Assembly: GCF_024298765.1 (NCBI RefSeq)
Contig: NZ_CP101210.1
Length of the DNA: 64,000 bases
Strand: one strand, 5' to 3'
Source of the DNA: Escherichia coli
GTDB lineage: Bacteria > Pseudomonadota > Gammaproteobacteria > Enterobacterales > Enterobacteriaceae
Shown here: piece by piece, positions 4,465-57,349 of the stretch
How the letters are laid out: every line of letters starts with the position of its first letter
Numbering within the stretch: the stretch's first letter is position 1
Made by a program: the position numbers and the translations under genes
The notes under the pieces: generated by a model
The model's input: the letters and a program-made list of their open reading frames with translations, nothing else
Told to the model about the DNA's origin: nothing
Databases searched by the model: none

Positions 4465-4466
4465 GG

Positions 4467-5718: not shown

Positions 5719-6264
<546 letters not shown>

Positions 6265-7567: not shown

Positions 7568-7699
7568 CATATCTCCCTTATCTGGACCGATGGCCCACGA
7601 TAATTTAGCAGAATGTTAACAAACTAAAATACACAAAACTACCAGAACCCCGTAGCAACCGGTGCCTGATGTTGACCGTCGGAACAGTCAACATCGCGA

Positions 7700-8989: not shown

Positions 8990-9053
8990 TCTCGGTTTCC
9001 AAAAACTGTTCGCCTGTTACCCGCTCTCTTTCAAGCAAGGGAAACGCAGATGT

Positions 9054-9482: not shown

Positions 9483-9485
9483 GGC

Positions 9486-10579
<1,094 letters not shown>

Positions 10580-22904: not shown

Positions 22905-23078
22905 TGTAGGCCGGATAAGGCATTCACGCCGCATCCGGCGCTGTTTGCCTGATGCGACGCTTGCGCGTCTTATCAGGCCTACGGTTTCTGCATTTCTTTT
23001 GTAGGCCGGATAAGGCGTTCACGCCGCATCCGGCACTGGTTGCCTGATGCGACGCTTGTGCGTCTTATCAGGCCTGGG
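22905..23078. repeat. Two tandem REP (BIME-type) palindromic units between sucA and sdhB
   Basis: Two near-identical units tgtaggccggataaggc...gccgcatccggc...tgcctgatgcgacgctt..cgcgtcttatcaggcc. Confidence 0.85.
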
Positions 23079-42459: not shown

Positions 42460-43294
42460 CAGGGCAAGATTACGAAAGCCCGCTCCCCGTAAGGACTGAC
42501 GCCAGGTAGTTTCTGTCCATAGCTGCCCTTTCTATTCAAACGTGAAATCAATAAGTTCATCAGGGACATCACAAACAATATGAAGACGGGTTTCTTCTCT
42601 GCCGTGACTCTTTTCACTAATTGAGTAACTGTCGTGCTCTGGATTATTTAATTCTTTCAGCGGAAATTTTTCCTCAAAGGCTTTATTAAGCCGCCACCTG
42701 ATTTCCTTTTACAGCGAATAAATAATCACCTCCCTGTTTTTGTATCTTCTCTGCAATATCTTTCTGGCAACTCATCGCATCAGTTGTGATGATTTTTCCT
42801 TTAATATCCAGCATGTTAAGAAGTTCAGGGATAGCTGTAATTTCATTGGATTTCTCATCCGTCCTGATCTGTCCGATGACCAGACTGTGCATTGTTGAGA
42901 ACGCACTAATGACATGAATCGCTCCCCTGCGGCGACTCTTGTCATAAGAATGCCGGAGCGTTTTTCCATCAATTGCAATAACGTCTTTATCATCTGAAGA
43001 ATGGCAGTCACGCATCCAGTTAATAAAGCACTCGTGAAATTTTGAAGGACTGATACAGGATACAACTCTGGCGATGGTATCGTGAACAGGAATACCATTT
43101 TAAAAATCACCATATTGTTTTAAAAAATCGAGATGTGTTTCCCCAAAATCCTCTATATCTTCCCAACCATCTGCACCAGAAATAACGGCACAAATAGTCA
43201 ACAGTAGAATATCCGACAATTTATGTTCCACTTTTCCAGGATTGTCTGTAATCGGGAATAACAGAAATATGTTCCATCAATTTTTTAAGTACCA
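42460..43294 (-). pseudogene. H-repeat (ISAs1-family) transposase pseudogene, copy 1: internal deletion plus nonsense/frameshift
   Basis: Aligns to the intact copy at 45108-46244 but lacks about 330 bp near the 3' end, has the 1-bp insertion shared with copy 3, and a stop (ttttaaaa in place of ttttcaaa) near 43100. Confidence 0.85.
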
Positions 43295-43424
43295 TTTTGT
43301 TCTCCTTAATTATGTAAGGAGTATTTGATCATGTATAAGCAATAAAAAACAGCTTTAGGTAATGAGGAATATCTCAATTTTTAAACATAAAATGCGAATT
43401 GTCTAGTACAAAAAAGCAGCGTTA

Positions 43425-43531
43425 CGTGATCTTTCCCTGAGAGGTACAGGAACTGCGGGAGGAACTTTATCAGGTTAAACAGGGGTTAAGGGGATGCGGA
43501 ACGGGATGTTTAGTGTGCTGAACGAAAGCTA
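43425..43531 (+). pseudogene. SymE-like toxin gene remnant (internal deletion)
   Basis: Retains the leader and GTG start context and the 3' end of the intact copy at 46375-46725; central part deleted, early stop. Confidence 0.7.
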
Positions 43532-43587
43532 AATAATAAAAAAGCCGGGAAGATCTTATCTTTCCCGGCCATCTTGCCATACATTAA

Positions 43588-44022
43588 TTATTTATGAATA
43601 TAATATAACTGAACATCATATTCATTATCACTTAAAACTATTAGTCGATCGGGAAATGTAAATGCTAATGAAAGATCATATGTTTCATTTATCGAAAACA
43701 AACTCAATATGAAATTTGAAAAATTTTCGACATGAAGAGATATGCAAACATCTCCATTATAGAATATATTGCAAAGAATATCTTTTTTCACATTCAGTGT
43801 ACTTTCAACATCTCTCGCTAGATCATTAATATTTAAAGGTAAATTGAAAACTCTCCTTTCAATAATATTATCGGTTTTATTTATTGCCATTAGCATTTCT
43901 CGATGCCACATGAAGTCATTCTTACGTAAGAATGATACATCAAAGGAAGTGACACCATTTAATTTAGAAGCATAATCTTTTGCTCTAATTAAATTTAATT
44001 TATCTTCAAGGCTAATTTTCAT
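43588..44022 (-). CDS. Putative Rhs-toxin immunity protein (orphan cassette 1)
   Basis: 144-aa low-GC ORF starting 4 nt before the stop of the orphan toxin reading frame; typical rhs-CT/rhsI arrangement. Confidence 0.6.
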   Translation of the reverse strand: MKISLEDKLNLIRAKDYASKLNGVTSFDVSFLRKNDFMWHREMLMAINKTDNIIERRVFNLPLNINDLARDVESTLNVKKDILCNIFYNGDVCISLHVENFSNFILSLFSINETYDLSLAFTFPDRLIVLSDNEYDVQLYYIHK

Positions 44023-44470
44023 AATATATATGATGATCCTTAGTTACAGGGTCATTGATCTTCTGATATCTATCACTTTTGAAATCGTATGTTCTAGGAT
44101 CAGCGCCCGGTTTAGGTTGTCCTGCATGTGCGTGAGGGCCAGGTGCCCTAGGATCTGCCGTGTGCTCGACTACAACTTTCTTACGTCCGTAGGCATCTGT
44201 ATATTCATAATATCGCCCATGAGACCCTAAATCTTCCGAATATTTATAATTTGTTTGTCCCCTTCTTCTAGGATCATTTCCAACGGTCCATTGCCTATTA
44301 GGTTGCTGTGAACGAGGTATGCCCGCAAGATCTTTTGCTTTATTTAGTGCCTGACGACGGTTTCTTAATTCACCACATTTAAGACCAAGCGGATCTATCC
44401 AGCTTACTGGATTAGGCGCGTAAGCATATAAGTTTAGCCCCCCCGCCAGCCCTATCGGGTCGGGTTACGT
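44011..44470 (-). pseudogene. Orphan rhs C-terminal toxin remnant (no start codon; in-frame stop before the DPxGL motif)
   Basis: Reverse-strand frame reads ...[46 protein letters not shown] followed by a 125-aa unique domain ending at the immunity gene; not in the ORF track because it lacks a start. Confidence 0.7.
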
Positions 44471-44634: not shown

Positions 44635-45030
44635 TTACAACTTCTTTACTTTCCATATTCTTTGCGCAGCTAAAAAAGATACTCCTTTGAACCAAGACGC
44701 ACATTCAATAACTTGTTCCCATGAATATATTTTATGTGAGCTAAATTTTATCGATTCATCTTGGTTCATTATCTCAATAAAATAATATCCTTTATTATAA
44801 TCTCTTTTTTCTATTCTATCTTCAGCTCTTGCCGAACGTATAGAAATAACACAATCATCTAATAAACAAAATCTTTTCTTTATAATCGCATCATCTTGGT
44901 TCCATGGATTTGTACTTGCCATTTGTTCTGATTGTTTCAGCTCATTCACTACTGTATACCAAATAGCTTCGGTATCACTTGCCTTTGCATTCTCTCTATC
45001 AGACTCGGATCTAAATATAATTTTGTCCAT
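44635..45030 (-). CDS. Hypothetical protein, possibly an orphan immunity gene
   Basis: 131-aa low-GC ORF between H-repeat copy 2 and the orphan toxin remnant; no recognisable motif. Confidence 0.4.
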   Translation of the reverse strand: MDKIIFRSESDRENAKASDTEAIWYTVVNELKQSEQMASTNPWNQDDAIIKKRFCLLDDCVISIRSARAEDRIEKRDYNKGYYFIEIMNQDESIKFSSHKIYSWEQVIECASWFKGVSFLAAQRIWKVKKL

Positions 45031-45107
45031 TTTAATAATCCAAATGTAAATTACTTAAAATACCCTCTGCCTCATTCCAGGCATTGACATGGGAACCCAG
45101 GGAAAGA

Positions 45108-46244
45108 TTACGAAAGCCCGCTCCCAGCAAGGACTGACGCCAGATAGTTTCTGTCCATGGCTGCTTTTCGCATCTTACGTCTTAACCCTGCCTTGAATAC
45201 CTTATCATTCGTCAAAATATTAATAGCGATGTGCCGTATCCCTGAAAATAATTCTGCTGCATTTCCTCTTCTTATTTTGCAGTCGTCTTCATTCATTACC
45301 ACGTCCAGACGCCAGTGCAGCTTATTCTCCACGTGCCAGTGGTTTCGGATTGCTGTGGCGAACTTCTCTGCGGTTAAATCAGCAGAACTGATATAATATC
45401 TGACCGTCATTTCTGGCTCTTTCTTTTGTTCTGCTATTATTGACCGAAAGGAGACTGCCACGCATAATTTCTTCAGACCTTTCCATTCAAACGTGAAATC
45501 AATAAGTTCATCAGGGACATCGCAAACAATATGAAGACGGATTTCTTCTCTGCCGTGACTTTTTTCACTAATTGCGTAACTGTCATGCTCTGGATTATTT
45601 AATTCTTTCAGTGGGAATTTTTCCTCAAAGGCTTTATTAAGCCGCCCCTGATTTCCTTTTACAGCGAATAAATAATCACCGCCCTGTTTTTGTATCTTCT
45701 CTGCGATATCTTTCTGGCACCCCATCGCATCAGTTGTGATAATTTTTCCTTTAATATCCAACATGTTAAGAAGTTCAGGGATAGCTGTGATCTCATTGGA
45801 TTTCTCATCCGTCCTGATCTGTCCGATGACCAGACTGTGCATTGTTGAGAACGCACTAATGACATGAATCGCTCCCCTGCGGCGACTCTTGTCATAAGAA
45901 TGCCGGAGCGTTTTTCCATCAATTGCAATAACGTCTTTATCATCTGAAGAATGGCAGTCACGCATCCAGTTAATAAAGCACTCGTGAAATTTTGCAGGAC
46001 TGATACAGGATACAACTCTGGCAATGGTATCGTGAACAGGAATACCATTTTCAAAATCACCATATTGCTTCAAAAAATCGAGATGTGTTTCCCCAAAATC
46101 CTCTATATCTTCCCAGCCTTCTGCACAAGAAATAACGGCACAAATAGTCAACAGTAGAATATCCGACAATTTATGTTCCACTTTCCAGGCTTGTCTGTAA
46201 TCGGGGATAATAGAAATATGTTCCATCAATTTTTTAAGTTCCAT
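45108..46244 (-). CDS. H-repeat-associated protein (ISAs1-family transposase), intact copy 2
   Basis: 378-aa ORF of the YhhI/YdcC/YbfD H-rpt type; element left end about 45094 (aagattacgaaagcccgc). Confidence 0.9.
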
Positions 46245-46374
46245 TTTGTTCTCCTTAATTATGTAAGGAGTATTTGACCATGTATACGCAATAAAAAACA
46301 GCTTCAGGTAATGAGGAATATCTCAATTTTTAAACATAAAATGCGAATTATTTAGTACAAAAAAGCAGCGTTAC

Positions 46375-46725
46375 GTGATCTTTCCCTGGTTAATCATGGC
46401 TGAACACGATATTACGCCAGAAATCACCATTTCCAAAACACAGCGCCGCTATAAAGTCGGCTATGTCAGAGCCCGCCACATAAACAGCAAAACCTACATG
46501 ACCACGTACTACTCACGACACCCCAGCCTGAACCTCAAGGGCGACTGGCTGAAAGAGGCCGGATTTGATACCGGGCGGGGTGTCACGGTGAAGATTTCGG
46601 AGGGGTGCCTGACCATCATCGCTGACAGTGACGAGGTGCAGGAACTGCGGGAGGAACTTTATCAGGTTAAACAGGTGGTTAAGGGGATGCGGAGCGGGAT
46701 GTTTAGTGTGCTGAACGATAATTAA
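46375..46725 (+). CDS. SymE-like toxin (AbrB/SpoVT-fold type I toxin family), intact copy
   Basis: 116-aa ORF from GTG (or 109 aa from ATG at 46396); contains the SymE-family core LKGDWLKEAGFDTGRGVTVKISEGCLTI. Confidence 0.75.
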   Translation: MIFPWLIMAEHDITPEITISKTQRRYKVGYVRARHINSKTYMTTYYSRHPSLNLKGDWLKEAGFDTGRGVTVKISEGCLTIIADSDEVQELREELYQVKQVVKGMRSGMFSVLNDN

Positions 46726-46734
46726 ATAATAAAA

Positions 46735-46765
46735 AGCCGGGAAGATTTAATTTTCTTTCCGGCTT
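46735..46765 (-). terminator. Hairpin terminator between the SymE-like gene and the immunity gene
   Basis: gccgggaaga...tctttccggc hairpin flanked by an A-run on the plus strand (U-run for the minus-strand transcript); same motif at 43540-43572 and 51983-52018. Confidence 0.55.
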
Positions 46766-46776
46766 TGTCTAATTAA

Positions 46777-47172
46777 TTATTCAGGAAATTTTCTATTTTT
46801 ATATGATGACCATAAGTGAGTGATCGACCAAGAGTTTTCCTTTCCGAGTACAAAACTTTTGGAGATTATCTCAATATCATCAGATATACGCGAAGATATT
46901 TCAGAATTATTAATCACCCTGAATGAGTATTTAAATGCCTTTTCTCGCAAGGAATCAATAAACTCAATATCATCATCCTGAAAACTTTCCTTATCTAATG
47001 AATTAAACTCACTCATCCAGCAATCATCAAACTCCGGTTCATCTCTTGAGTCTAATGCACTATCAACATTTAATGATTTAAGAAAATCAAAAAATGACGG
47101 GGTGGATAAACAGTTATCAATTTCAATTAGCTTATTATTAATCATCACATTAACCCTTGTCCTTTGAGCCAA
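46777..47172 (-). CDS. Putative Rhs-toxin immunity protein (orphan cassette 2)
   Basis: 131-aa acidic low-GC ORF immediately 3' of and overlapping the GHH-type orphan toxin. Confidence 0.6.
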   Translation of the reverse strand: MAQRTRVNVMINNKLIEIDNCLSTPSFFDFLKSLNVDSALDSRDEPEFDDCWMSEFNSLDKESFQDDDIEFIDSLREKAFKYSFRVINNSEISSRISDDIEIISKSFVLGKENSWSITHLWSSYKNRKFPE

Positions 47173-47790
47173 ACCTCTATTAAATCAACAGCCTTGGATG
47201 GTGTCACATTAGTACCTAGCGTATAAGTTCCATTTGGAGATTTAACATCAACTCTGATGTCATCTAATTTTGAATACGCTTTTCTGTAAGCATCAAATAA
47301 CTCTTTATCCGAACCAAGGAAATCACCTTGTCTTGGACCTATCACATCTCGTTCCGCATGATGTAAACGCCAGTGATTATGTTCTGGATTTTCTCCTCTA
47401 GGGAATAATGTTGGGCGAGTTTTATCAGATCGGGAAACTTCAAACGGACGTCCTTTAGATTTACGAACCGCAGGAACATGATGTCCAGATTCACTCACGC
47501 CCATACACTTCTTCGTTAATCCAAGGGGATCGATCCAGCTTAACGGATTCGGTGCATAAGCATACAGGTTTAACCCGCCTCTTAGCCCTATCGGGTCCGT
47601 TACCATGAACCGCCCGACATCCGGATCATAGTACCTGTGCAGATTGTAATGCAGCCCCGTTTCCCTGTCGAGGTACTGTCCCTGGTAGCGCAGGTTCTGC
47701 TCCACCCCGCCGTGGTCCTTCTCCTGTATCGTGTTACCCCAGACCTGATACCCCGTCTCCCACACGATTTTCCCGTCACTGTCCGTCATC
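47145..47790 (-). CDS. Orphan rhs C-terminal fragment with GHH-signature HNH/EndoVII-like nuclease toxin domain
   Basis: Core end ([38 protein letters not shown]) followed by a unique domain containing SGHHVPAV and EHNHWRLHH; 5' end truncated by the H-repeat copy 3 insertion; the track Met is fortuitous. Confidence 0.65.
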
Positions 47791-47802
47791 TCCAGGGCAA
47801 GA

Positions 47803-48940
47803 TTACGAAAGCCCGCACCCCGCAAGGACTGACGCCAGATAGTTTCTGTCCATGGCTGCTTTTCGCATCTTACGTCTTAACCCTGCCTTGAATACCTTAT
47901 CATTCGTCAAAATATTAATAGCGATGTGCCGTATCCCTGAAAATAATTCTGCTGCATTTCCTCTTCTTATTTTGCAGTCGTCTTCATTCATTACCACGTC
48001 CAGACGCCAGTGCAGCTTATTCTCCACGTGCCAGTGATTTCGGATCGCTGTGGCGAACTTTTCTGCGGTTAAATCAGCAGAACTGATATAATATCTGACC
48101 GTCATTTCTGGCTCTTTCTTTTGTTCTGCTATTATGGACCGAAAGGAGACTGCCACGCATAATTTCTTCAGTCCTTTCCATTCAAACGTGAAATCAATAA
48201 GTTCATCAGGGACATCACAAACAATATGAAGACGGGTTTCTTCTCTGCCGTGACTCTTTTCACTAATTGAGTAACTGTCGTGCTCTGGATTATTTAATTC
48301 TTTCAGCGGAAATTTTTCCTCAAAGGCTTTATTAAGCCGCCACCTGATTTCCTTTTACAGCGAATAAATAATCACCTCCCTGTTTTTGTATCTTCTCTGC
48401 AATATCTTTCTGGCAACTCATCGCATCAGTTGTGATGATTTTTCCTTTAATATCCAGCATGTTAAGAAGTTCAGGGATAGCTGTAATTTCATTGGATTTC
48501 TCATCCGTCCTGATCTGTCCGATGACCAGACTGTGCATTGTTGAGAACGCACTAATGACATGAATCGCTCCCCTGCGGCGACTCTTGTCATAAGAATGCC
48601 GGAGCGTTTTTCCATCAATTGCAATAACGTCTTTATCATCTGAAGAATGGCAGTCACGCATCCAGTTAATAAAGCACTCGTGAAATTTTGCAGGACTGAT
48701 ACAGGATACAACTCTGGCAATGGTATCGTGAACAGGAATACCATTTTCAAAATCACCATATTGCTTCAAAAAATCGAGATGTGTTTCCCCAAAATCCTCT
48801 ATATCTTCCCAGCCTTCTGCACCAGAAATAACGGCACAAATAGTCAACAGTAGAATATCCGACAATTTATGTTCCACTTTCCAGGCTTGTCTGTAATCGG
48901 GGACAATAGAAATATGTTCCATCAATTTTTTAAGTTCCAT
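47803..48940 (-). pseudogene. H-repeat (ISAs1-family) transposase pseudogene, copy 3 (frameshifted)
   Basis: Split into two ORFs (47803-48156 and 48332-48940) by a 1-bp insertion (aagccgccacctg versus aagccgcccctg in the intact copy). Confidence 0.85.
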
Positions 48941-49080
48941 TTTGTTCTCCTTAATTATGTAAGGAGTATTTGATCATGTATAAGCAATAAAAAACAGCTT
49001 TAGGTAATGAGGAATATCTCAAATCTTAAACATAAAATGCCAATTATTTAGTACAAAAAAGTAGCGTTACGTGATCTTTC

Positions 49081-49570
49081 CCTAAAACGCAGACCCAGTT
49101 GTGCATAGTACACATGGTACGCAACAGCCTGCGGTTCGTGACGTGGAAAGACTATAAAGCGGTAACCCGTGACCTGAAACAGGTTTACCGCGCGGCCACG
49201 GAAGAAGGCGTGTTGCAGGCGCTGGATGCGTTCGGGAAGGAATGGGATGCACGGTACCCGCAGATAAGTCGCAGCTGGCGGGCAAACTGACCGAATGTTG
49301 CCACCTTCTTCGTGTACCCGGAGGCGATCCGAAAGGTTATCTACACCACTAACGCAATCGAATCGCTGAATAGCGTCATCAGACATGCGATAAAGAAAAG
49401 GAAAGTGTTCCCGACAGATGAATCGGTGAAAAAAGTGGTGTGGCTGGCTATCCAGTCAGCCTCACAGAAATGGACGATGCCACTTCAGGACTAGCGGATA
49501 GCCATGAGTCGCTTTATTATCGAGTTCGGTGACCGCCTTGACGGTCACTTCTGAGAAAGGCATTTACACA
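49081..49570 (+). mobile_element. IS256-family (mutator-type) transposase gene remnant, 5'-truncated and frameshifted
   Basis: ORFs 49099-49290 and 49312-49494 encode the C-terminal part of an IS256-type transposase (...YPQISRSWRAN / IRKVIYTTNAIESLNSVIRHAIKKRKVFPTDESV...); begins abruptly at the shared leader sequence. Confidence 0.75.
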
Positions 49571-49619: not shown

Positions 49620-49946
49620 TTAATCACCCGGCTTCTCCCAACATTTTATCTTTTCTATTTCTCTCTCAATATCATCCATATCATCATCTCCAAGATCGGT
49701 ATTAAAATTTTCAGTAATAACCCTTCTTATTTCAGCCAACCGATGTGTAATATTTTTATCATCAATAAATTTAGTGGTTTCTTTAAAGTAAGAATTCAAC
49801 AATTTATCATCAATAACGTTCTGCTCTATACCATTGAAATAATACCTTGCAATATTCTTAAGTGATATCAATATGTACTCTACCTCACTTAGAATATAAA
49901 GGGCATCCTTCCCGGGTATATTAATTACATCATTGTTTTTATTCAT
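49620..49946 (-). CDS. Putative Rhs-toxin immunity protein (orphan cassette 3)
   Basis: 108-aa acidic low-GC ORF 1 nt downstream of the 601-aa orphan rhs. Confidence 0.6.
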   Translation of the reverse strand: MNKNNDVINIPGKDALYILSEVEYILISLKNIARYYFNGIEQNVIDDKLLNSYFKETTKFIDDKNITHRLAEIRRVITENFNTDLGDDDMDDIEREIEKIKCWEKPGD

Positions 49947-49947: not shown

Positions 49948-51753
49948 TTATTTACGCCGAGTTATTTTTGCATTATCAGAAAGAACAATATCACCTTTCA
50001 CAGTCAATTCATCTATATGGTATCGAGGGTTTGTTACCCACTCTAATTGCTCGTTAGGTACATCTGTTTCCACATAATCTCTACCTTTCCCACGACCTAT
50101 TTGATATTTCGCCTCTATGTCTACTTGACTGAGTGGTTTTTTATTCGCAGGTTCCAAATATACACGACCGTTATCATGCGCCTTAATTATCCCACTTTCA
50201 GCAATCGCATTTGAACCTTTACGATTAGTATAATGCCGCACACGAGTAGTTCCATTACAGAGCTCTTTTTTTAATCCGAGTGGATCAATATATTTCAGCG
50301 GATTAGGCGCATAAGCATATAAGTTCAACCCACCCGCCAGCCCTATCGGATCCGTTACAATGAACCGCCCGACATCCGGATCATAGTACCTGTGCAGATT
50401 GTAATGCAGCCCTGTTTCCCTGTCGAGGTACTGTCCCTGGTAGCGCAGGTTCTGCTCCACCCTGCCGTGGTCCTTCTCCTGTATCGTGTTACCCCAGACC
50501 TGATACCCCGTCTCCCACACGATTTTCCCGTCACTGTCCGTCATCTCTTCCGGCGCGCCGTTCACATCCGTGTGAAAATACAGTATCCGGTTCGGGCCCT
50601 CTTTGCCCGCCTTATCCACCCGCGCCAGCGGTTCATAACTCCCCGGGTCCCTGTAGATGTACAGGCTGTCTGTTCCCTCCGGCCTGCTCTCCTGCGCCAG
50701 CCGCATTCCGTCCCATAAAAATGCCGTCCGGTTGTACGGTTTACCGTCAGGGCTGATGTGCTGTTTTTCCGTCCGCCTCCCCAGCGCATCGTACACATAC
50801 CGGTACGTTCCCCGCGCTGTCGTCACTTCCACCATCCGGTGTTCCGCATCATAACGGTAACTCTGCGTGCCGCTCCGCCCCTCCTTTTCCACCGCACGGC
50901 CAAATTCGTCGTAACGGTAGTGCACACCACGGTAAGACATCAGCCGGTTGAACGGCACCACGCTGTTTTCTGCCGTGGCCCTTTCCCCCGCGCGCCGCCC
51001 CAGCAGGTTTCCCGCCGCGTCGTACTGCCAGCTCGCCAGATACCCCTCATCCTCCGAGCGGCACGCCGTGATGCGCCCCGTGGGGTCGTAGAAGTAATCC
51101 GTTTCCCCCCGCCGGCTGTGCCGCGTCTTCAGCAGTTCATCCTCGCCACTGTAGCTGTACTGCCGGTCCGTGAACGTCTCCGGTACCACCCCGCGCATCC
51201 CGCTGTATGTCTCCCTGCGCTTCAGCCGCCCGGCGGGGTCGTAAAGCTGCCGCGTGCTCAGTCGCCCCTGACTTCTGAGCACTTCACGGTGCAGGGCGTC
51301 ACGAGTGAACTCGCTGATGACCTCCCGGTCCAGATTTATCTGCTGGAGATGGCCGCTGCCGTAGTACAGATGACGCTGCGTTCTGCCGTCCGGAAAGGTG
51401 GTGGCTGTCCGGTTGCTGAGTTCATCGTACTGATGGGTCAGGACGCCCTGCGCCGTCTCCTCAGTCAGCATCCGCCCCAGTCTGTCGTAACTGAAACGGA
51501 TAATCTCCGGTGCGTCTGTTTCCCCGGCATCCGACCGTCGGCGGCGGATTTCCAGTAACTGGTCTGCCGCATCATGGACGTATTCCGTACGGCTATCGGC
51601 TGTCTCCTTTGCCGTGAGCCGGCCCGCCGCATCACGTGCCAGCCGGTGGCGGATTTCACCGCCCCGGTCCCCGGTGAACACCACTTCCGTGACCGCGTTC
51701 AGCGCGTTGTAGCGGTACGTCTGGCGGCAGCCGTCGTGCTGCCAGCGCAGCAT
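49948..51753 (-). CDS. Orphan rhs fragment: about 480 aa of Rhs core plus a distinct C-terminal toxin domain
   Basis: YD-repeat core near-identical to the main rhs, then DPIGLAGG...DPLGL and a unique roughly 108-aa tail (KKELCNGTTRVRHYTNRKGSNAIAESGII...); rhs homology starts at DGCRQTYRY, so the track Met is fortuitous. Confidence 0.8.
   Translation of the reverse strand: MLRWQHDGCRQTYRYNALNAVTEVVFTGDRGGEIRHRLARDAAGRLTAKETADSRTEYVHDAADQLLEIRRRRSDAGETDAPEIIRFSYDRLGRMLTEETAQGVLTHQYDELSNRTATTFPDGRTQRHLYYGSGHLQQINLDREVISEFTRDALHREVLRSQGRLSTRQLYDPAGRLKRRETYSGMRGVVPETFTDRQYSYSGEDELLKTRHSRRGETDYFYDPTGRITACRSEDEGYLASWQYDAAGNLLGRRAGERATAENSVVPFNRLMSYRGVHYRYDEFGRAVEKEGRSGTQSYRYDAEHRMVEVTTARGTYRYVYDALGRRTEKQHISPDGKPYNRTAFLWDGMRLAQESRPEGTDSLYIYRDPGSYEPLARVDKAGKEGPNRILYFHTDVNGAPEEMTDSDGKIVWETGYQVWGNTIQEKDHGRVEQNLRYQGQYLDRETGLHYNLHRYYDPDVGRFIVTDPIGLAGGLNLYAYAPNPLKYIDPLGLKKELCNGTTRVRHYTNRKGSNAIAESGIIKAHDNGRVYLEPANKKPLSQVDIEAKYQIGRGKGRDYVETDVPNEQLEWVTNPRYHIDELTVKGDIVLSDNAKITRRK
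50362..51735. repeat. 1.37-kb direct repeat, copy A (orphan rhs core)
   Basis: Essentially identical to 52880-54253 (offset 2518 bp); the antisense track ORFs 50392-50718 and 50758-51558 recur identically at 52910-53236 and 53276-54076. Confidence 0.9.
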
Positions 51754-51774
51754 CTGCCCAACCGCAGCGACACG

Positions 51775-51978
51775 CCGGTGATCAAAATCAGCGCCAAATG
51801 GCTGAGAGAAGCGGGATTTGAGATCGGCACGGGCGTTACCGTGAAGATCTCGGAAGGCTGCCTGATCCTGCTTGCAGATAACAACGGAGTACAGGAACTG
51901 CGCAGGGAACTTTATCAGGTTAAACAGTCTGTTAAGGGGATGCGGAACGGGATGTTTAGTATGCTGAACGATAATTAA
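51775..51978 (+). pseudogene. SymE-like toxin gene 3' fragment
   Basis: Encodes ...IKISAKWLREAGFEIGTGVTVKISEGCLILLADNNGVQELRRELYQVKQSVKGMRNGMFSMLNDN; 5' part replaced by the orphan rhs junction. Confidence 0.7.
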
Positions 51979-52043
51979 ATAATAAAAAGCCGGGAAGATT
52001 TAATTTCTTACCCGGCTTTTGATAACTTAATAATATTATAATC

Positions 52044-52424
52044 CTAAATCAATCTTTTTTTTAATTCCCTTATTTCAGGAGTTAATGCAAAACTGTCTTC
52101 TAAAGATTCGTCATCCAAGGCCCAGTAATTAATAAGATCTATATGATTTTTATAATTATCAAGCAGAGTGTTGAGTGCTTTTACAATAACTTTATCTGAA
52201 GGAGGTACTCCAGAAGATAATAAATCATTACAGACATCAAGGGCTAAAGTCATTAATTCATTCTTCCCTTTTTGTGAGTAGCCATTATTTAAATATGCAG
52301 CAATATATTTACTTAACCACTCTTTAGTTCGATATTTTTCAGGCAGTTCATAAGCCCAATCTTGTGTAAACTTATCACTCACTGGTACACCAAGTTCACT
52401 ACAGATTTTATCTATTTCATTCAT
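52044..52424 (-). CDS. Putative immunity protein for the main Rhs toxin
   Basis: 126-aa low-GC ORF 18 nt downstream of the main rhs stop. Confidence 0.65.
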   Translation of the reverse strand: MNEIDKICSELGVPVSDKFTQDWAYELPEKYRTKEWLSKYIAAYLNNGYSQKGKNELMTLALDVCNDLLSSGVPPSDKVIVKALNTLLDNYKNHIDLINYWALDDESLEDSFALTPEIRELKKRLI

Positions 52425-52441: not shown

Positions 52442-55400
52442 TTAGTTGTCGTGTGATGAATTGAATGGGAACGATGTACGTACAGAACCGTCGGGTTTTA
52501 CAACAACCCTTGCCATATCTGGAACTACCTCTGTCCCATCAGGTAAATAACCTCGACTTTTTATATTTGTAGGCAATGGCACATCATGCACACCTGGTCC
52601 TTTTTTGGCAACAGAAGCAATAAAATCAGCAGCAGAATTATCATCGAGATATTGTCCAACTTGATGACCTTTATTTCTGGCACGATCAATTAACTGATTT
52701 GGTTTCATTTTCTGTCCGTGTTCAGAAAAGGTGTGACCGTATGTAGGCTTACTTTTTGGATTTCCCCATTTGAAGTCAGATTTAGGACACAATCCAAGTG
52801 GGTCGATCCATGACAGTGGATTAGGTGCATACTGATATAAGTTTAACCCGCCTCTCAGCCCTATCGGGTCCGTTACCATGAACCGCCCGACATCCGGATC
52901 ATAGTACCTGTGCAGATTGTAATGCAGTCCCGTTTCCCTGTCGAGGTACTGTCCCTGGTAGCGCAGGTTCTGCGCCACCCCGCCGTGGTCCTTCTCCTGT
53001 ATCGTGTTACCCCAGACCTGATACCCCGTCTCCCACACGATTTTCCCGTCACTGTCCGTCATCTCTTCCGGCGCGCCGTTCACATCCGTGTGAAAATACA
53101 GTATCCGGTTCGGGCCCTCTTTGCCCGCCTTATCCACCCGCGCCAGCGGTTCATAACTCCCCGGGTCCCTGTAGATGTACAGGCTGTCTGTTCCCTCCGG
53201 CCTGCTCTCCTGCGCCAGCCGCATTCCGTCCCATAAAAATGCCGTCCGGTTGTACGGTTTACCGTCAGGGCTGATGTGCTGTTTTTCCGTCCGCCTCCCC
53301 AGCGCATCGTACACATACCGGTACGTTCCCCGCGCTGTCGTCACTTCCACCATCCGGTGTTCCGCATCATAACGGTAACTCTGCGTGCCGCTCCGCCCCT
53401 CCTTTTCCACCGCACGGCCAAATTCGTCGTAACGGTAGTGCACACCACGGTAAGACATCAGCCGGTTGAACGGCACCACGCTGTTTTCTGCCGTGGCCCT
53501 TTCCCCCGCGCGCCGCCCCAGCAGGTTTCCCGCCGCGTCGTACTGCCAGCTCGCCAGATACCCCTCATCCTCCGAGCGGCACGCCGTGATGCGCCCCGTG
53601 GGGTCGTAGAAGTAATCCGTTTCCCCCCGCCGGCTGTGCCGCGTCTTCAGCAGTTCATCCTCGCCACTGTAGCTGTACTGCCGGTCCGTGAACGTCTCCG
53701 GTACCACCCCGCGCATCCCGCTGTATGTCTCCCTGCGCTTCAGCCGCCCGGCGGGGTCGTAAAGCTGCCGCGTGCTCAGTCGCCCCTGACTTCTGAGCAC
53801 TTCACGGTGCAGGGCGTCACGAGTGAACTCGCTGATGACCTCCCGGTCCAGATTTATCTGCTGGAGATGGCCGCTGCCGTAGTACAGATGACGCTGCGTT
53901 CTGCCGTCCGGAAAGGTGGTGGCTGTCCGGTTGCTGAGTTCATCGTACTGATGGGTCAGGACGCCCTGCGCCGTCTCCTCAGTCAGCATCCGCCCCAGTC
54001 TGTCGTAACTGAAACGGATAATCTCCGGTGCGTCTGTTTCCCCGGCATCCGACCGTCGGCGGCGGATTTCCAGTAACTGGTCTGCCGCATCATGGACGTA
54101 TTCCGTACGGCTATCGGCTGTCTCCTTTGCCGTGAGCCGGCCCGCCGCATCACGTGCCAGCCGGTGGCGGATTTCACCGCCCCGGTCCCCGGTGAACACC
54201 ACTTCCGTGACCGCGTTCAGCGCGTTGTAGCGGTACGTCTGGCGGCAGCCGTCCGGATTTATCTGCTCCGCCAGACGGTCCAGCACGTCATGGCGGAACC
54301 GGTAGCTTTCTCCGTTCTCGTTTGTCAGCGTGACCAGACGCCCGTAAGCATCGTACCCGAACGCCGTCCTGCGCCCCGTCGCGTCTGTCCGGCTGCGCAC
54401 CCGGCCCTGCCCGTCCCGCTGCCAGCGCGTTATCCTCCCCATCGGGCTGGTGTACTTCACCAGCCTGCCCGCCGCGTCCGACTGGTAATTCACCGTGCGG
54501 CCGTCCGCCAGTATCACCTCCGTCAGGTGGCCGCTGTCGTCATACCCGTAGCGCGTGCTGTGGCTCTGCGCGTCTGTCATCCGTATCAGCCGCGTGCGTT
54601 CGTCGTAGAACCAGGCCGTCTGCGAGCCGGAACAGTCCGTGTGCCGCATGAGCTGCCCGTCTTCGTTCCACTGAAGGTATTTATTCCCCCCGCGCGCATC
54701 GGTTATCTGCACCACCTGGCCGTGGCGGTCATACTGATACCGGGTGTTCTGCTGCAGCGGGTCGGTCACCGCAAGAAGATTGCCGCGTTCATCGTACTCA
54801 CAGCACCAGCTGTTCCCCGCCGCGTCCACCTCCGTTTCCGGCTGGTGCCACACCGGGTGCCACTGTGTCTGTGCCACCCGCCCCAGCGGGTCGTGCGTCT
54901 CCGTGATATGCCCCTGCCGGTCATACACATAGCGCCATTTGCCGCCCTGCGCATCGGTCATTCCCAGTAACAGCCGTTCTTCGTCGCTCCAGCGGAACGT
55001 CGTCACCTGCCCGGCTTCGTCCTGGTACGCCGTCACCTGATTCTGCGCGTCCCACTGATGATAACGCGTGCGCCCCAGCCCGTCCGTCACGCACAGCCTG
55101 CGTGACGCCAGGCTCCACGCCAGCCGGTACTGTTCACCGCTGTCCGTGTGGTGCCCCGTCACCCGCCACGCTGCGTCATCCGGGCCTTCATACCAGCTCC
55201 ACTGGTAATAATACCCTTCGCCGCCCGGCTGGCGGTGCAGGGTCATGCAGTGGTTTTCGTCGTAAGCAAACTCGCGCAGCAGGTGTCCCGTGCTGTCGTA
55301 CACGCCGTTCAGGTCGCCGGCCTCGTCATAGCGGTAACGACGCAGCAGTAAAGGAGCCGTCTCAGGGAAATGCTGATAAATCTGTGTCACCCGCCGGGGA

Positions 55401-57100
55401 TGCGCCGCCAGTTCATAATGCAGACGGATGCACGGACGCTGCTGTTCACCGCTGATTTGCGTGATGCGCCCCAGCTCGTCGTAGTACAGATTCAGACAGT
55501 TGCTGTTGCGGTCGCCCAGCATTTTCAGCCGCTGGCGCTGCGGGTGATGCGGGTCGGCTTCAAACAGAAAAAACTGCCCGTCATCGCTGCTGATAAGCCA
55601 GTGCCCCTGCTCACCCCGCCTTACCGCCAGTCCTTCGCCGGGGCTGTAAAACCCGCTCCCCGGCAGCACGGCCTCCATATCCAGGCGTCGCCCCATGCCC
55701 GACACAAAGGTCATGCAGTTTTCGTCAGCAGTACCCGGCGTGCGCCCGAGGCTGACTTCATACATCACGCTCCAGCCCTGCCCGAACATCCCTTCCGTGC
55801 GGTCGTCACGACTGCTGTACACGCGCTGCCAGTCCAGCGGAAAGTGGCCCGGCAGACTGAAATCGAAGTCATCGTCATCGGCCAGATATTTGGCTCCGGT
55901 GGCGGCATTGACCGGATGCGGAAGGGCACTGATGGCCTTCTGCGTCATCACCCCCATCCCGACACTGGCAGCAAAACAGGCGATTTTAGAAAGCATTTTG
56001 CCCGGGCGAAGAAACATCAGCGCCACGGTTGCCACCAGGGTTATCTGCGACCTGCCGCTTCTGATATCCCTGACCACCAGTAACGGACCGCCAATGCGGA
56101 CATCCGGTGACACAAACGCCCCGTTCCCCGGCTCATTCACCACCCTGGCCTCGCAGGTGCAGCGTGCCCCGCTGCGTGCCGCCGGCTGGCTGTTGATACG
56201 CACATCCCGCGCGCCTTCCGCGATATATTCCGCTGCGGGCGGTTCATCATCGCCTTTGAACAGATTACTGATGCTGCCAATAACCGCATTCACTCCCTGA
56301 AAGGCGGTTTCCAGCATACCGTCCGGACTCAGCAGGTTAAGGGCCGTTCCCAGGGGGTCATCCAGAAAGGCGGCTTTTTTTTGTGCGAGAAACTGCGTCA
56401 GTGAGGAGGGATGTTTATGGCAGTCGATTTTATCGTCAGGGGTCGGGGTGGAGCCCGGGGCCGCACTGGCCACGGTGGGCTGCCATAGTTCCGACACAAA
56501 ATGTGTCACGCCATCCACCATTTCAGAACGCCCTTCTTCCGTACTGAGCTGGTCGTGCAGCGCCCGGGACATCAGCACAGGCCCTGTCACCGGGTTAACC
56601 GCCAGGGCTATGGCCCCCGCCATTTCCAGATATTCCCCGGCCACATCCAGGAACGTTCTGGCATCCTCCTGACGCTGCGCTTCTTCCTGTTCCGCCTTCG
56701 CCTGCGCCTCCTGCGCCTCAATGTCCTGCCGCGATGCCGCAGTCGCCGCGGCCCGCGCGGCAGGTTTGCTGTTGATCCATGTGTCGCCAGAGCCGGTGAG
56801 GATGTAACCTTCAATCTGAGGCGGGAAAAGCATATTTGCGAGGTCTGAACAGACTTCGCTGACCGTGTCTGTCACGCCGGTGTACACCATCGCCACACCC
56901 GCCACAAAACCGGTCAGCACGACGGCCGTGCACCCCATCGTGATCCCCACTGACGCCGCCAGTAACGAGGTTGTGCCGACAATGAGGGCATCAATAACGA
57001 CATTTGCGGCCACCTCCAGCACCGCCCCCAGCACATCTGCCATAAACGACGTATGCAGCAGGGCATCACCCTGCCTTGCCGCCCAGAATGCCTCTTCCAT
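52442..57100 (-). CDS. Full-length Rhs polymorphic toxin with N-terminal prePAAR-like motif and hydrophobic segment (T6SS effector-like), YD-repeat shell and variable C-terminal toxin domain
   Basis: 1552-aa ORF; N-terminus MEEAFWAARQGDALLH fits AARxxDxxxH, followed by about 55 hydrophobic residues and PAAR-containing segments; YD repeats; core ends PxxxxDPxGL (WIDPLGL) about 115 aa before the stop. Confidence 0.85.
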   Translation of the reverse strand: MEEAFWAARQGDALLHTSFMADVLGAVLEVAANVVIDALIVGTTSLLAASVGITMGCTAVVLTGFVAGVAMVYTGVTDTVSEVCSDLANMLFPPQIEGYILTGSGDTWINSKPAARAAATAASRQDIEAQEAQAKAEQEEAQRQEDARTFLDVAGEYLEMAGAIALAVNPVTGPVLMSRALHDQLSTEEGRSEMVDGVTHFVSELWQPTVASAAPGSTPTPDDKIDCHKHPSSLTQFLAQKKAAFLDDPLGTALNLLSPDGMLETAFQGVNAVIGSISNLFKGDDEPPAAEYIAEGARDVRINSQPAARSGARCTCEARVVNEPGNGAFVSPDVRIGGPLLVVRDIRSGRSQITLVATVALMFLRPGKMLSKIACFAASVGMGVMTQKAISALPHPVNAATGAKYLADDDDFDFSLPGHFPLDWQRVYSSRDDRTEGMFGQGWSVMYEVSLGRTPGTADENCMTFVSGMGRRLDMEAVLPGSGFYSPGEGLAVRRGEQGHWLISSDDGQFFLFEADPHHPQRQRLKMLGDRNSNCLNLYYDELGRITQISGEQQRPCIRLHYELAAHPRRVTQIYQHFPETAPLLLRRYRYDEAGDLNGVYDSTGHLLREFAYDENHCMTLHRQPGGEGYYYQWSWYEGPDDAAWRVTGHHTDSGEQYRLAWSLASRRLCVTDGLGRTRYHQWDAQNQVTAYQDEAGQVTTFRWSDEERLLLGMTDAQGGKWRYVYDRQGHITETHDPLGRVAQTQWHPVWHQPETEVDAAGNSWCCEYDERGNLLAVTDPLQQNTRYQYDRHGQVVQITDARGGNKYLQWNEDGQLMRHTDCSGSQTAWFYDERTRLIRMTDAQSHSTRYGYDDSGHLTEVILADGRTVNYQSDAAGRLVKYTSPMGRITRWQRDGQGRVRSRTDATGRRTAFGYDAYGRLVTLTNENGESYRFRHDVLDRLAEQINPDGCRQTYRYNALNAVTEVVFTGDRGGEIRHRLARDAAGRLTAKETADSRTEYVHDAADQLLEIRRRRSDAGETDAPEIIRFSYDRLGRMLTEETAQGVLTHQYDELSNRTATTFPDGRTQRHLYYGSGHLQQINLDREVISEFTRDALHREVLRSQGRLSTRQLYDPAGRLKRRETYSGMRGVVPETFTDRQYSYSGEDELLKTRHSRRGETDYFYDPTGRITACRSEDEGYLASWQYDAAGNLLGRRAGERATAENSVVPFNRLMSYRGVHYRYDEFGRAVEKEGRSGTQSYRYDAEHRMVEVTTARGTYRYVYDALGRRTEKQHISPDGKPYNRTAFLWDGMRLAQESRPEGTDSLYIYRDPGSYEPLARVDKAGKEGPNRILYFHTDVNGAPEEMTDSDGKIVWETGYQVWGNTIQEKDHGGVAQNLRYQGQYLDRETGLHYNLHRYYDPDVGRFMVTDPIGLRGGLNLYQYAPNPLSWIDPLGLCPKSDFKWGNPKSKPTYGHTFSEHGQKMKPNQLIDRARNKGHQVGQYLDDNSAADFIASVAKKGPGVHDVPLPTNIKSRGYLPDGTEVVPDMARVVVKPDGSVRTSFPFNSSHDN
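52880..54253. repeat. 1.37-kb direct repeat, copy B (main rhs core)
   Basis: Essentially identical to 50362-51735. Confidence 0.9.
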
Positions 57101-57118: not shown

Positions 57119-57349
57119 TTAATTCGTCCCGGCTTCCTGCCGCATCCTGAAGCGCAGATTCTTTTTAATTTCAGCCCAGCGCGTCATATCAGCCGGGGTC
57201 AGCGGTGTGGTTCGGGCGTAGGTGAAGGCCATCATGACCCGCTCACCCGGCAATACAAATGCCACCTGACACTGGTACACCTGCTCGTTACCCCGGAGAA
57301 ACTGGCTCTGTATTTGCAAACCGCCTCATTGAGATAATATTCCGTCATA
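57119..57349 (-). pseudogene. Possible degenerate Eag-type (DUF1795-like) chaperone gene remnant upstream of rhs
   Basis: ATG at 57347-57349 opens MTEYYLNEAV... (resembles the DUF1795 N-terminus) but stops after 38 codons; a second frame continues 66 codons to 57119; total length is about half that of an intact Eag gene. Confidence 0.25.

Follow-up and report, generated by a model that had tools for sequence, protein, structure and literature searches.

We consider it likely that positions 46290–46770 of the window, the stretch of 64,000 nucleotides of Escherichia coli DNA analysed here, consist of the right end of the insertion sequence ISEc1 joined to a decapitated, probably silent symE relic that closes an Rhs cassette. 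The window comprises the E. coli rhsC locus and is 100% identical with that of strain 104. Three symE copies are present in it, all on the strand opposite to the rhs and immunity genes: copy 2, with an intact reading frame within this region, and the truncated copies 1 and 3 on either side.

A SymE-family gene at the rhsC locus

The preliminary description of this DNA had proposed an intact open reading frame of 109–116 residues with the core of the SymE family, and both points stand. The reading frame of copy 2 (46396–46725, plus strand; RefSeq WP_001317706) encodes 109 residues from an ATG at 46396; the 116-residue version starts from a GTG at 46375, which lies within the IS terminal repeat. 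In a profile search, residues 16–75 matched positions 1–53 of the 54 in the Pfam SymE_toxin model (PF08845, E = 2.5e-20), a full-length domain match. Identity with K-12 SymE is 41%, and the score with the NCBIfam equivalog for endoribonuclease SymE (NF010128) is 50.3 bits, compared with 39.6 bits for the 80-residue reading frame of copy 3, both under the curated cut-off of 132 bits, which applies to the whole-protein score. The 109-residue protein is a member of the SymE family (PF08845), yet is not SymE proper by NF010128.

By analogy with its family, the protein of copy 2 may be an AbrB/MazE-like DNA-binding protein, toxic when over-made. Its placement in the AbrB/MazE swapped-hairpin superfamily derives from the Pfam domain and from the profile analysis of Kawano et al. 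2007 (PMC1891008). An AF2 monomer model, built from an alignment of 15 sequences (mean pLDDT 53), is too poor for judging the AbrB fold; Foldseek comparison of this model with the PDB gave no match at E ≤ 0.001, and a profile search of the PDB with the SymE-like protein returned a coiled-coil artefact only and no sequence relative.

Values of dN/dS among intact symE-family copies are 0.13–0.57, which indicate that at loci with an intact gene the protein is under purifying selection. The reading frame of copy 2 is unbroken and identical in about 60 genomes; this identity may result from clonality, and selection could also produce it. Already annotated as a SymE-family gene in RefSeq, copy 2 is an ordinary gene of a known kind, probably silent here.

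The supposed leader is the end of ISEc1

Directly upstream of copy 2 is an intact ISEc1/H-rpt element of 1,291 bp (H-rpt copy 2; 45098–46388, minus strand), delimited by RefSeq annotation, terminal inverted repeats and the repeat families D3, D4 and D8. ISEc1/H-rpt belongs to the ISAs1 family of insertion sequences and accompanies Rhs elements. Its transposase reading frame (45108–46244, minus strand) scores 412 bits with NF033564 (cut-off of 70), the left end of the element is CAGGGAAAGATTACG, the right terminal inverted repeat is cgtgatctttccctg (reverse complement CAGGGAAAGATCACG), and 7 nt separate this right end from the copy 2 ATG. The right-hand ~100 bp of the element (about 46292–46388) correspond to the segment that had been described as a conserved leader preceding each symE copy. 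This segment is the end of a transposable element, not a leader, and copy 3 has no such segment. By itself the IS-end segment is found in 1,805 of 5,426 complete E. coli genomes; the junction with symE that the window contains occurs in only 82.

The symE reading frame lies outside the element. In strain M1, symE is located beside rhs with just 35 bp of H-rpt remaining, and ISAs1 is absent from most other genera; these two arrangements place the gene outside the IS. The possibility that leader and reading frame were together merely the end of the H-repeat thus holds for the leader and fails for the reading frame. As a component of H-rpt itself, symE is ruled out by the K-12 copies of the element at rhsB, rhsC and rhsE, which carry no symE remnant.

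No target-site duplication was found at the flanks of H-rpt copy 2 (...atgggaacc on the left, gttaatcat... on the right). H-rpt copies 1 and 2 each stop precisely at the inverted repeat, which favours IS-adjacent deletion or recombination over primary insertion as the origin of the junction at −7. H-rpt copy 1 (42460–43439, minus strand; RefSeq and repeat analysis) is of the ybfD type, internally deleted to 980 bp, and adjoins ybgA. H-rpt copy 3 (47793–49084, minus strand; RefSeq and repeat analysis) is frameshifted, and its right end (48990–49084) adjoins not symE but an IS256-family remnant, as the preliminary description had noticed. This remnant (49090–49494, plus strand; RefSeq) is the C-terminal part of a transposase with an internal stop, both halves of which match NF033543 with E about 1e-16.

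Architecture of the convergent cassettes

The neighbours of the symE copies are Rhs orphan toxin–immunity modules, in which a core end is followed by a C-terminal region that varies and then by a small gene. Facing copy 2 is orphan module C, in which an immunity-type gene encoding 122 residues (46777–47145, minus strand; RefSeq), for which no family match was found, adjoins an orphan rhs fragment with core end and C-terminal toxin (47145–47792, minus strand; TIGR03696, E = 6.9e-30), itself truncated by H-rpt copy 3 at 47792. Facing copy 1 is an immunity-type gene (43588–44022, minus strand) downstream of an HNH/EndoVII polymorphic-toxin fragment (about 44012–44455, with a weaker TIGR03696 match over 44012–44452). 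Copy 3 faces the immunity-type gene (52044–52424, minus strand; RefSeq) of the main rhsC gene (52442–57100; RefSeq). Similarity between loci is confined to 46389–46766 and the core end at 47516–47792, with none across the segment 46767–47515, and orphan modules A and D have the same pattern of conserved blocks around a variable segment.

The truncated copies lie at 43440–43531 and 51736–51978, in line with the preliminary description. Copy 1 (plus strand; repeat families D9 and D10) is a 3′ relic of about codons 80–109: the last ~30 codons are left, with one nucleotide deleted (repeat offsets 3192 versus 3193), and follow H-rpt copy 1 directly at its right end. Copy 3 (plus strand; RefSeq WP_001696838; NF010128, E = 3.9e-10) is a 5′-truncated reading frame of 80 residues that meets an opposite-strand rhs core fragment in a fusion at 51735/51736, with neither an IS end nor a 5′ UTR; its DNA similarity to intact symE genes begins at about 51799.

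Between each symE copy and the convergent gene is a hairpin (dG of −15 to −21 kcal/mol and z of −3.4 to −5.7 by folding), located at 43544–43569 between relic 1 and its immunity gene, at 46733–46766 for copy 2 and at 51985–52020 between copy 3 and the main-rhsC immunity gene. The stop-to-stop distances of 51, 56 and 65 bp agree with the spacing of about 50 bp and the common hairpin that had been noted for genes of opposite strand. The U-run of the hairpins is 3′ on the rhs/immunity strand. For the hairpin at 46733–46766 (dG of −20.8 kcal/mol on the plus and −15.4 kcal/mol on the minus strand), which is common to copy 2 and the immunity gene, the U-run after the stem on the minus strand points to a role mainly as the rhs/immunity terminator. 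A promoter and terminator scan missed it, because its minus-strand form has a mismatch and the U-run on the plus strand is short. Inter-locus DNA similarity stops at 46766, that is, at this hairpin.

Loss of the native 5′ region and of the SymR-type RNA

In E. coli 14EC020 and A37, and in Buttiauxella, Enterobacter, Erwinia, Affinibrenneria and others, the gene is preceded by a native 5′ region, ...cagaGGtagttaatcATG, with an upstream hairpin. This region contains a Shine–Dalgarno site and a SymR-homologous antisense RNA, and is missing from all three copies in the window. Replacing it in copy 2 is ccctg|gttaatcATG, with CCCTG in the place of the Shine–Dalgarno GAGG.

The relatives match the Rfam symR model with 48–50 bits (E about 1e-6) and exact K-12 geometry, including the 6-nt overlap with the start codon. 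Their SymR-type hairpin has 93.5% of cells paired, with compensatory changes in 9 of 14 pairs; slid controls gave 33–52%. A custom SymR model scores 65–102 bits at native loci, among them the rhsE locus of the same genome. Over the whole window, no SymR-like RNA gene was found, with no Rfam match and a best custom-model score of 11.4 bits (E = 2.2). The preliminary description had implied SymR and SOS control, which is not supported for this locus. Copy 2 is not a symE/symR type I module here, the cis antisense RNA over the 5′ UTR, Shine–Dalgarno site and start codon being absent and the promoter region lost. Within 160 nt upstream of copy 2, which is IS sequence, there is no CTG-N10-CAG LexA-like motif; such a motif is present at −79/−78 in the native E. 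coli relatives only, and in none of the other genera.

Retained within codons 2–14 of copy 2 is a predicted SymR-type antisense promoter (46401–46436, minus strand), identified by hexamer conservation and comprising TTGGAA (46436–46431), a 16-nt spacer, TAATAT (46414–46409) and a start at 46401. Although the encoded amino acids change, the TTGGAA and TAnnAT hexamers stay in place from genus to genus, and the hexamer position matches that of TAGAAT in K-12 with respect to the start of symR; with 8 of 12 consensus matches, the site falls under the threshold of the promoter scanner. This promoter is predicted to be intact in copy 2, where its transcript would run into the ISEc1 end, not the symE 5′ UTR.

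On the sense strand, a scan of 46150–46850 found no promoter-like site between the transposase start and the copy 2 ATG. Owing to the loss of promoter, Shine–Dalgarno site and SymR-like RNA body, copy 2 is most likely untranslated, which would account for the persistence of a toxin reading frame without its antidote.

Linkage of symE and Rhs across enterobacterial genomes

A search of other genomes for symE near rhs immunity genes, as foreseen in the preliminary description, revealed systematic convergence: at 41 loci in many enterobacterial genera, with or without an IS, symE genes are convergent to Rhs fragments. Of the 74 symE copies whose downstream flank extends for 1.5 kb or more, 52 have an opposite-strand rhs fragment within 2.5 kb (median of 756 bp), as do 42 of the 52 copies that are at least 55% identical. 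At these symE–Rhs loci, ISAs1 is confined to those of E. coli plus two others; its absence from most loci of other genera rules out H-rpt as the cause of the link.

Truncation at the 5′ end affects 45 of the 63 Rhs-linked copies, another rhs core fragment lies less than 400 bp upstream in 30 of the 63, and SymR is kept in only 5. Non-Rhs copies with a retained N-terminus have SymR in 14 of 14 cases. At one locus (L024), 8 symE fragments alternate with 9 rhs fragments. Truncation points recur near residues 12, 30, 43–44 and 57, a pattern that may derive from spread of the same junctions or from the limits of tblastn alignments; non-random breakage could also give rise to it.

The SymE–RHS neighbourhood and the gene family have been known since 2007, and the association is thus not undescribed, as had been supposed: SymE beside RHS and haemagglutinin genes appears in Kawano et al. 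2007 (PMC1891008), and later papers remarked on symE genes within a T6SS/Rhs cluster of Erwinia and a CDI cluster of Proteus. A symE gene with its hairpin as a component of the orphan repeat unit was not found spelled out in the literature searched.

Probable origin of the relics and possible roles

From the anatomy of the junctions we infer a history of cassette stacking. The native gene is a type I module of the SymE/SymR kind, with a Shine–Dalgarno site in its 5′ UTR and a constitutive antisense RNA; beginning 6 nt into the coding sequence, this RNA spans the ribosome-binding site as far as a terminator hairpin that shows covariation. The symE gene is convergent with the rhs–immunity operon and has the terminator in common with it; owing to this arrangement, the toxin-tip/immunity segment is bracketed by the rhs core end and by symE with its hairpin. 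Stacking of new cassettes before old ones would destroy the 5′ part of symE, and the 3′ part and terminator would remain as a scar ending each orphan module. All three copies in the window would be such scars: copy 1 retains 30 codons next to an IS end, copy 3 is fused to an rhs core fragment, and copy 2 is a whole reading frame whose promoter, Shine–Dalgarno site and SymR-like RNA body were lost to the IS end.

Matches to two small RNAs lie opposite the symE-like genes, on the antisense strand. Rfam isrA (RF01385) matches opposite symE codons 24–67 (46467–46595, minus strand; 117.6 bits, gathering score of 51), and Ssr1 of Shigella flexneri (RF02627) matches partially across the rhs-core/symE junction and hairpin of copy 3 (51714–52075, minus strand; 193 bits, gathering score of 820). 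In Salmonella, IsrA is encoded in cis and antisense to STM0294.1n, and the two are inversely expressed (PMC2330248); Ssr1 maps between the putative Rhs gene SF0268 and SF0269 (PMC4782007). The Rfam match and the Salmonella locus L083 suggest that STM0294.1n may be a symE homologue.

We find it doubtful that an element at the DNA or RNA level is what is conserved, and not the protein. Such an element might be the symE 3′ half and hairpin, acting as downstream homology arm and insulator, or an antisense transcript of the IsrA/Ssr1 type as the product. The arm and insulator would permit toxin-tip/immunity exchange and keep the orphans untranscribed. The conserved rhs core end and symE with hairpin do flank a variable cassette, and 3′ fragments with the hairpin are kept in almost every orphan module, but passive truncation of a convergent gene would likewise leave a 3′ fragment. 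Besides the Rfam matches on the antisense strand, antisense transcripts and phenotypes have been reported in Salmonella (PMC2330248) and Shigella (PMC4782007); the isrA model, however, may reflect coding-sequence conservation only, and dN/dS well below 1, with conserved residues in the Pfam domain, argues for selection at the protein level where the gene is intact. With dN/dS at 0.13–0.57, conservation from antisense RNA alone is unlikely.

It is improbable that copy 2 is functional, which would entail transcription from or through ISEc1, a low level of a nucleoid-binding protein under proteolytic control by Lon in place of an antisense RNA, and a role in island retention or in modulation of rhs and immunity genes. 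Lon also controls K-12 SymE, according to Kawano et al. 2007 (PMC1891008), and the reading frame is unbroken among degraded neighbours and belongs to a family under purifying selection; its identity across genomes, however, is probably clonal and so uninformative. Many Rhs-linked symE copies elsewhere are frameshifted or truncated, so loss of the gene is tolerated at this position. Read-through, or a weak plus-strand promoter-like site inside the IS (46182–46211), could transcribe copy 2, but such sites are no commoner than in shuffled sequence (2 found, 1.7 expected), and with GAGG replaced by CCCTG only low translation lacking a Shine–Dalgarno site would be possible.

Very improbable is the view first taken, of three SymE-like type I toxin genes with their own leaders, SOS-inducible, silenced by antisense RNA and in an undescribed functional partnership with Rhs immunity genes: the SymE-family domain, convergent arrangement and hairpins are real, the predicted SymR-type promoter is unbroken inside copy 2 and the CTG-N10-CAG motif exists in native E. 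coli relatives, but this view is largely refuted by the IS boundary, which turns the leader, absent from copy 3, into the ISEc1 end, and it also conflicts with the missing SymR-like RNA gene, the fragmentary state of two of the three copies, the lack of the motif upstream in the window and outside E. coli, and the association published in 2007.

Significance and relation to known systems

As first made, the claim would have meant a new toxin–antitoxin partner for Rhs systems. In that form it fails, because the family and its RHS neighbourhood were known in 2007, the reading frames are named in RefSeq and the regulatory-looking feature is an IS end. Of modest remaining value is a clear picture of how the repeating module of Rhs orphan arrays is built, from core end, toxin tip, immunity gene, terminator and symE relic, plus H-rpt in E. 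coli; most Rhs-linked symE copies are decapitated. The matches of isrA and Ssr1 to the strand opposite to symE-like genes could alter how these small RNAs are interpreted and annotated.

Tentatively, polymorphic-toxin cassettes across Enterobacterales, those of Rhs and apparently also of CdiA, may have SymE/SymR as their ancestral distal boundary. The 3′ half and terminator would then serve as downstream homology arm, insulator and scar, an intact terminal copy with SymR as an addiction module guarding the array, and IsrA and Ssr1 would be antisense transcripts over symE relics. If this is true, IsrA and Ssr1, with their reported expression patterns and phenotypes, would not be free-standing intergenic small RNAs.

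The closest characterized system is K-12 symE/symR, a type I toxin–antitoxin locus according to Kawano et al. 2007 (PMC1891008). According to the summary in PMC11894785, Thompson et al. 2022 re-described its protein as a DNA-binding protein that condenses the nucleoid. The window gene resembles K-12 symE in its SymE_toxin domain and the conserved VGY...LKGxWLxxAGF...V.V residues, but is located at an rhs locus, not in the hsd/mcr region, and has a different C-terminal tail. The native relatives share with K-12 symR the start 6 nt inside the coding sequence, the covered Shine–Dalgarno site, an equally placed −10 hexamer and the terminator hairpin; the window has no SymR gene, 5′ UTR or LexA site. 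The matches to IsrA and Ssr1 both lie antisense to symE-like genes, and that to Ssr1 is far under the gathering score of its model.

With the H-rpt/ISEc1 elements of K-12 (ybfD, ydcC and yhhI), the window element shares a transposase 97–99% identical to YdcC, YhhI and YbfL; it differs from the K-12 copies at rhsB, rhsC and rhsE in adjoining a symE gene. Rhs orphan toxin-tip/immunity arrays and C-terminal displacement were reportedly described by Jackson (2009), Poole (2011) and Koskiniemi (2014). The window conforms to such arrays, since after the main rhsC come three orphan modules that each comprise a core-end fragment, a variable toxin tip and an immunity gene, and differs in that the modules here, as at the 41 loci elsewhere, also end in a convergent symE gene or fragment with its hairpin.

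Locus and gene order

The window corresponds to the E. coli rhsC locus, and its segment 46200–46850 matches strain 104 (NZ_CP029164) and some 60 further complete genomes at 100% identity. Gene order was taken from the RefSeq annotation of the strain 104 region (window = locus + 34199), in which the rhs genes are on the minus strand. Running from ybfA to ybgA are an N-terminally truncated DcrB-related (Rhs chaperone-type) pseudogene (57119–57322, minus strand) upstream of the main rhsC (52442–57100, minus), the immunity-type gene of rhsC (52044–52424), a SymE-family CDS (copy 3; 51736–51978, plus), an orphan rhs fragment (49948–51735, minus) with its small gene (49620–49946), an IS256-family transposase remnant (49090–49494), a frameshifted ISAs1 element (47793–49084), an orphan rhs tip (47145–47792, minus) with its small gene (46777–47145), a second SymE-family CDS (copy 2; 46396–46725, plus), an intact ISEc1 (transposase 45108–46244), an HNH polymorphic-toxin fragment with its small gene (43588–44022), and a degraded ISAs1 element of the ybfD type. 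Situated between ISEc1 and the HNH module is a 131-aa ORF (44635–45030, minus) with no NCBIfam match, which is possibly an immunity gene left stranded. The annotation shows no vgrG between the DcrB-related pseudogene and ybfA; this genome's rhsE locus has intact vgrG and dcrB. Rfam gathering-level matches at 3953–4753, 5680–5818 and 22909–23074 are unrelated to symE (a seven-tRNA cluster with an RtT element, the CpoB/ybgF RNA thermometer and two naRNA4 (REP-type) repeats).

The symE copies and their flanks

The intact ORF of copy 2 (46396–46725), its translation and its core motif are as the preliminary description gave them, and the assignment to the SymE family is upheld by Pfam SymE_toxin (E = 2.5e-20). 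The protein is 41% identical to K-12 SymE; on the NCBIfam SymE equivalog model, with a cut-off of 132 bits, it reaches just 50, which makes it a family member and not a SymE orthologue. The upstream GTG start of a 116-aa reading sits within the ISEc1 inverted repeat. The two truncated copies also exist: copy 1 (43440–43531) comprises the last ~30 codons directly after an IS end, with a 1-nt deletion, and copy 3 (51736–51978) is an 80-aa ORF fused to an opposite-strand rhs core fragment. Copies 2 and 3 are already named as SymE-family in RefSeq.

As had been proposed, all three copies are convergent with an immunity-type gene, with stop-to-stop gaps of 51, 56 and 65 bp. Each gap folds into a strong hairpin (ΔG −15 to −21 kcal/mol, z-scores −3.4 to −5.7), which is primarily the terminator of the rhs–immunity transcript, because the U-run UUUUUAUUAUUU comes after it on the rhs/immunity strand.

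The ‘conserved leader’ thought to precede each copy is an ISAs1 insertion-sequence end, and copy 3 has no such segment. Before copies 1 and 2, and at 48878–49084, this segment is continuous with an ISAs1 transposase gene (repeat analysis, family D3, 207 nt, 94–96% identity). Beside copy 2, ISEc1 extends from CAGGGAAAGATTACG at 45098 to cgtgatctttccctg at 46388 (1291 bp) with near-perfect terminal inverted repeats and a transposase scoring 412 bits on the ISAs1 model, and the copy 2 ATG lies 7 nt past the terminal repeat. When 5426 complete E. coli genomes were screened with a 110-nt probe across this junction, 1805 had the IS half alone and only 82 the full junction. The same IS end does adjoin the IS256-family remnant (IS end at 49084; remnant E ~1e-16 for both halves). 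The IS is not needed for the symE–immunity–rhs arrangement, because strain M1, with the order ybgA, H-rpt left end, symE, immunity gene, rhs, retains no more than 35 bp of H-rpt.

The native 5' region and a SymR-like RNA

In other E. coli genomes the same symE gene lies at the distal end of Rhs elements, which occupy two chromosomal positions, one next to ybgA and the other next to pptA/yddH. The surviving native 5' region reads ‘...taacgcag-[hairpin]-ccgctcaccacaagcaactaacaGAGGtagttaatcATG’, a form conserved from E. coli to Buttiauxella, Enterobacter, Erwinia, Affinibrenneria, Budvicia, Mixta and Cedecea. On the opposite strand of these regions the Rfam symR model scores 48–50 bits (E ~1e-6), below the gathering score of 61, and its matches end 6 nt within the coding sequence, the same overlap as that of K-12 symR and symE. 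When K-12 symR and ten native 5' sequences are aligned, the SymR terminator hairpin is 93.5% paired, with compensatory changes in 9 of 14 pairs (slid controls 33–52%; 0 of 500 shuffles reach the observed value). A covariance model built from this alignment gives 65–102 bits in native loci and 68 bits on K-12 symR. The antisense promoter (TTGGAA, 16 nt, TAnnAT, 7 nt, then a start at AGCCAT) keeps its position despite synonymous and non-synonymous change. Judged from SymR homology, hairpin covariation, model scores and this positional conservation, the family is a genuine SymE/SymR-type module.

The RNA partner is missing from all three window copies: across the entire window the covariance model found no SymR-like RNA, its best match (11.4 bits, E = 2.2) being the symE/immunity hairpin. 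In copy 2 the Shine–Dalgarno GAGG is also replaced by IS sequence, and no promoter-like site was found between the transposase start and the ATG. About 784 kb away in the same genome, the rhsE locus holds a complete symE/SymR module with a 96% identical protein. In strain 104 this module (locus L087, 7001–7426; chromosome 3368152–3368577, outside the window) lies at the end of a vgrG–dcrB–rhs–immunity operon, and a degraded H-rpt ends ~98 nt upstream of its symE ATG.

Still intact within symE codons 2–14 of copy 2 is a SymR-type promoter (46401–46436, minus strand), which through the IS junction now faces the ISEc1 right end. As the transposase gene lies ~150 nt downstream on the same strand, this promoter could drive or boost its transcription.

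Linkage to Rhs across genera

A one-genome-per-species scan yielded 76 loci, which were searched by tblastn with the window RhsC, ISEc1 transposase and SymE-like protein. Enterobacterial symE copies with 1.5 kb or more of downstream flank number 74, and 52 of them have an opposite-strand rhs fragment no more than 2.5 kb away (median 756 bp); among copies with 55% or higher identity to the window protein, 42 of 52 do. Linked genera include Citrobacter, Yersinia, Kosakonia, Enterobacter, Atlantibacter, Lelliottia, Leclercia, Rahnella, Providencia, Erwinia and Salmonella; ISAs1 sequences occur only in E. coli loci and two others. Among 63 Rhs-linked copies, 45 are 5'-truncated, 14 have the N-terminus and 5 have SymR, and another rhs core fragment lies less than 400 bp upstream of 30. 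DNA similarity between loci covers symE with its hairpin (46389–46766) and the rhs core end (47516–47792); the ~750 bp between these blocks has none, and modules A and D follow the same pattern.

An Enterobacteriaceae MAG (UBA5654; L024, 1–10000) has eight symE fragments alternating with nine rhs core-end fragments. Lying downstream of one full rhs gene, this array is the clearest instance of the repeat unit, with truncation points recurring near residues 35, 44 and 57. Intact copies have dN/dS of 0.13–0.57, and three copies are frameshifted; these otherwise full-length genes (L012, L021 and L022, from 8001) shift after about codon 20, consistent with frequent symE inactivation. In Salmonella enterica (L083, 6980–7357) a called 118-aa ‘SymE’ ORF starts within an antisense rhs core fragment, so that its annotated N-terminus is a fusion artefact; genuine symE sequence is present only from the position of about codon 7 in the E. 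coli gene onward, and SymR is absent from this locus.

The symE copies without Rhs linkage are of a shorter form (79–80 aa), often after a cHTH gene, and all those with an N-terminus keep SymR. In two loci read in detail, short-form symE is convergent with a VENN-motif or CdiA-like pre-toxin protein, presumably an orphan CdiA tip, followed by a small gene. Around 7500–10200 of loci L026, L030 and L034, such genes with SymR follow an Xre-type cHTH gene; in L030 and L034 symE converges with the small gene and VENN/CdiA-like protein, and close by in L026 are a primase-helicase and an integrase, an arrangement that Kawano's Fig. 7A also shows.

Antisense RNA families

Two Rfam families, isrA and Ssr1, map to the antisense strand of symE-family genes. 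The isrA model scores 117.6 bits in the window and 141 bits in Salmonella; Ssr1, a Shigella sRNA, gives a partial match (51714–52075, minus strand) across the rhs-core/symE junction of copy 3. IsrA is described as cis-antisense to STM0294.1n with inverse expression (PMC2330248), and Ssr1 has been placed beside an Rhs gene (PMC4782007); a link of either to symE-family genes was not found stated in the literature searched. Because the Ssr1 match spans the copy 3 junction, it implies the same rearrangement in S. flexneri. The DNA of 51754–51798 is common to E. coli 2015C-4136CT1 (L005) and absent from intact symE genes.

Proposed mechanism

What the data show directly is the anatomy, the family assignments, where SymR is present or absent, and the linkage statistics; the following reading is inferred. 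The native module would act like K-12 symE/symR, by antisense occlusion of the ribosome-binding site, and the protein so controlled would be AbrB-like, DNA-binding and harmful in excess. Placed at the far end of the cassette, the module would be convergent to the rhs–immunity operon. An incoming toxin tip and immunity gene may enter through homologous joining in the rhs core and illegitimate joining at their far side; because the incoming piece would end within symE, each displaced module would be left with the 3' part of symE and a terminator. H-rpt copies next to symE may, in E. coli, contribute more recombination as well as IS-adjacent deletions. Copy 2, having lost promoter, Shine–Dalgarno site and antidote while keeping the ORF, is most likely untranslated, which is the weakest step. 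Overall, we consider it probable that a SymE/SymR-type module marks the Rhs cassette end, that the copies are scars of displacement and that copy 2 is silent.

Comparison with known systems

The initial observation is confirmed in part, and its interpretation likewise finds partial support. The feature exists but is of an ordinary kind: a SymE-family relic, already annotated, that sits at the junction with an IS inside an Rhs orphan array. Its remaining value lies mainly in repeat-unit anatomy and in the reinterpretation of the IsrA and Ssr1 sRNAs. Matches at megablast sensitivity occur in just 218 of the 5426 complete E. coli genomes, and K-12's own Rhs elements have no symE remnant, so the K-12 loci of classical Rhs work bear no trace of symE. 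K-12 SymE itself is now described (summarised in PMC11894785) as nucleoid-condensing and not an RNase. The SymE–Rhs association, which the preliminary description did not know to have been reported, appears in a figure legend of the founding SymE paper (Kawano et al. 2007, PMC1891008), which also reports a conserved sequence upstream of homologues, suggesting sRNA control. Later genome papers record two reverse-strand SymE genes beside an Rhs/T6SS cluster in Erwinia amylovora, an opposite-strand symE between cdiI and orphan cdiA/cdiI pairs in Proteus mirabilis, and symE beside orphan hcp genes in Pantoea. From the legend, these papers and the RefSeq naming of the window ORFs, the association is already known, though only at the level of remarks.
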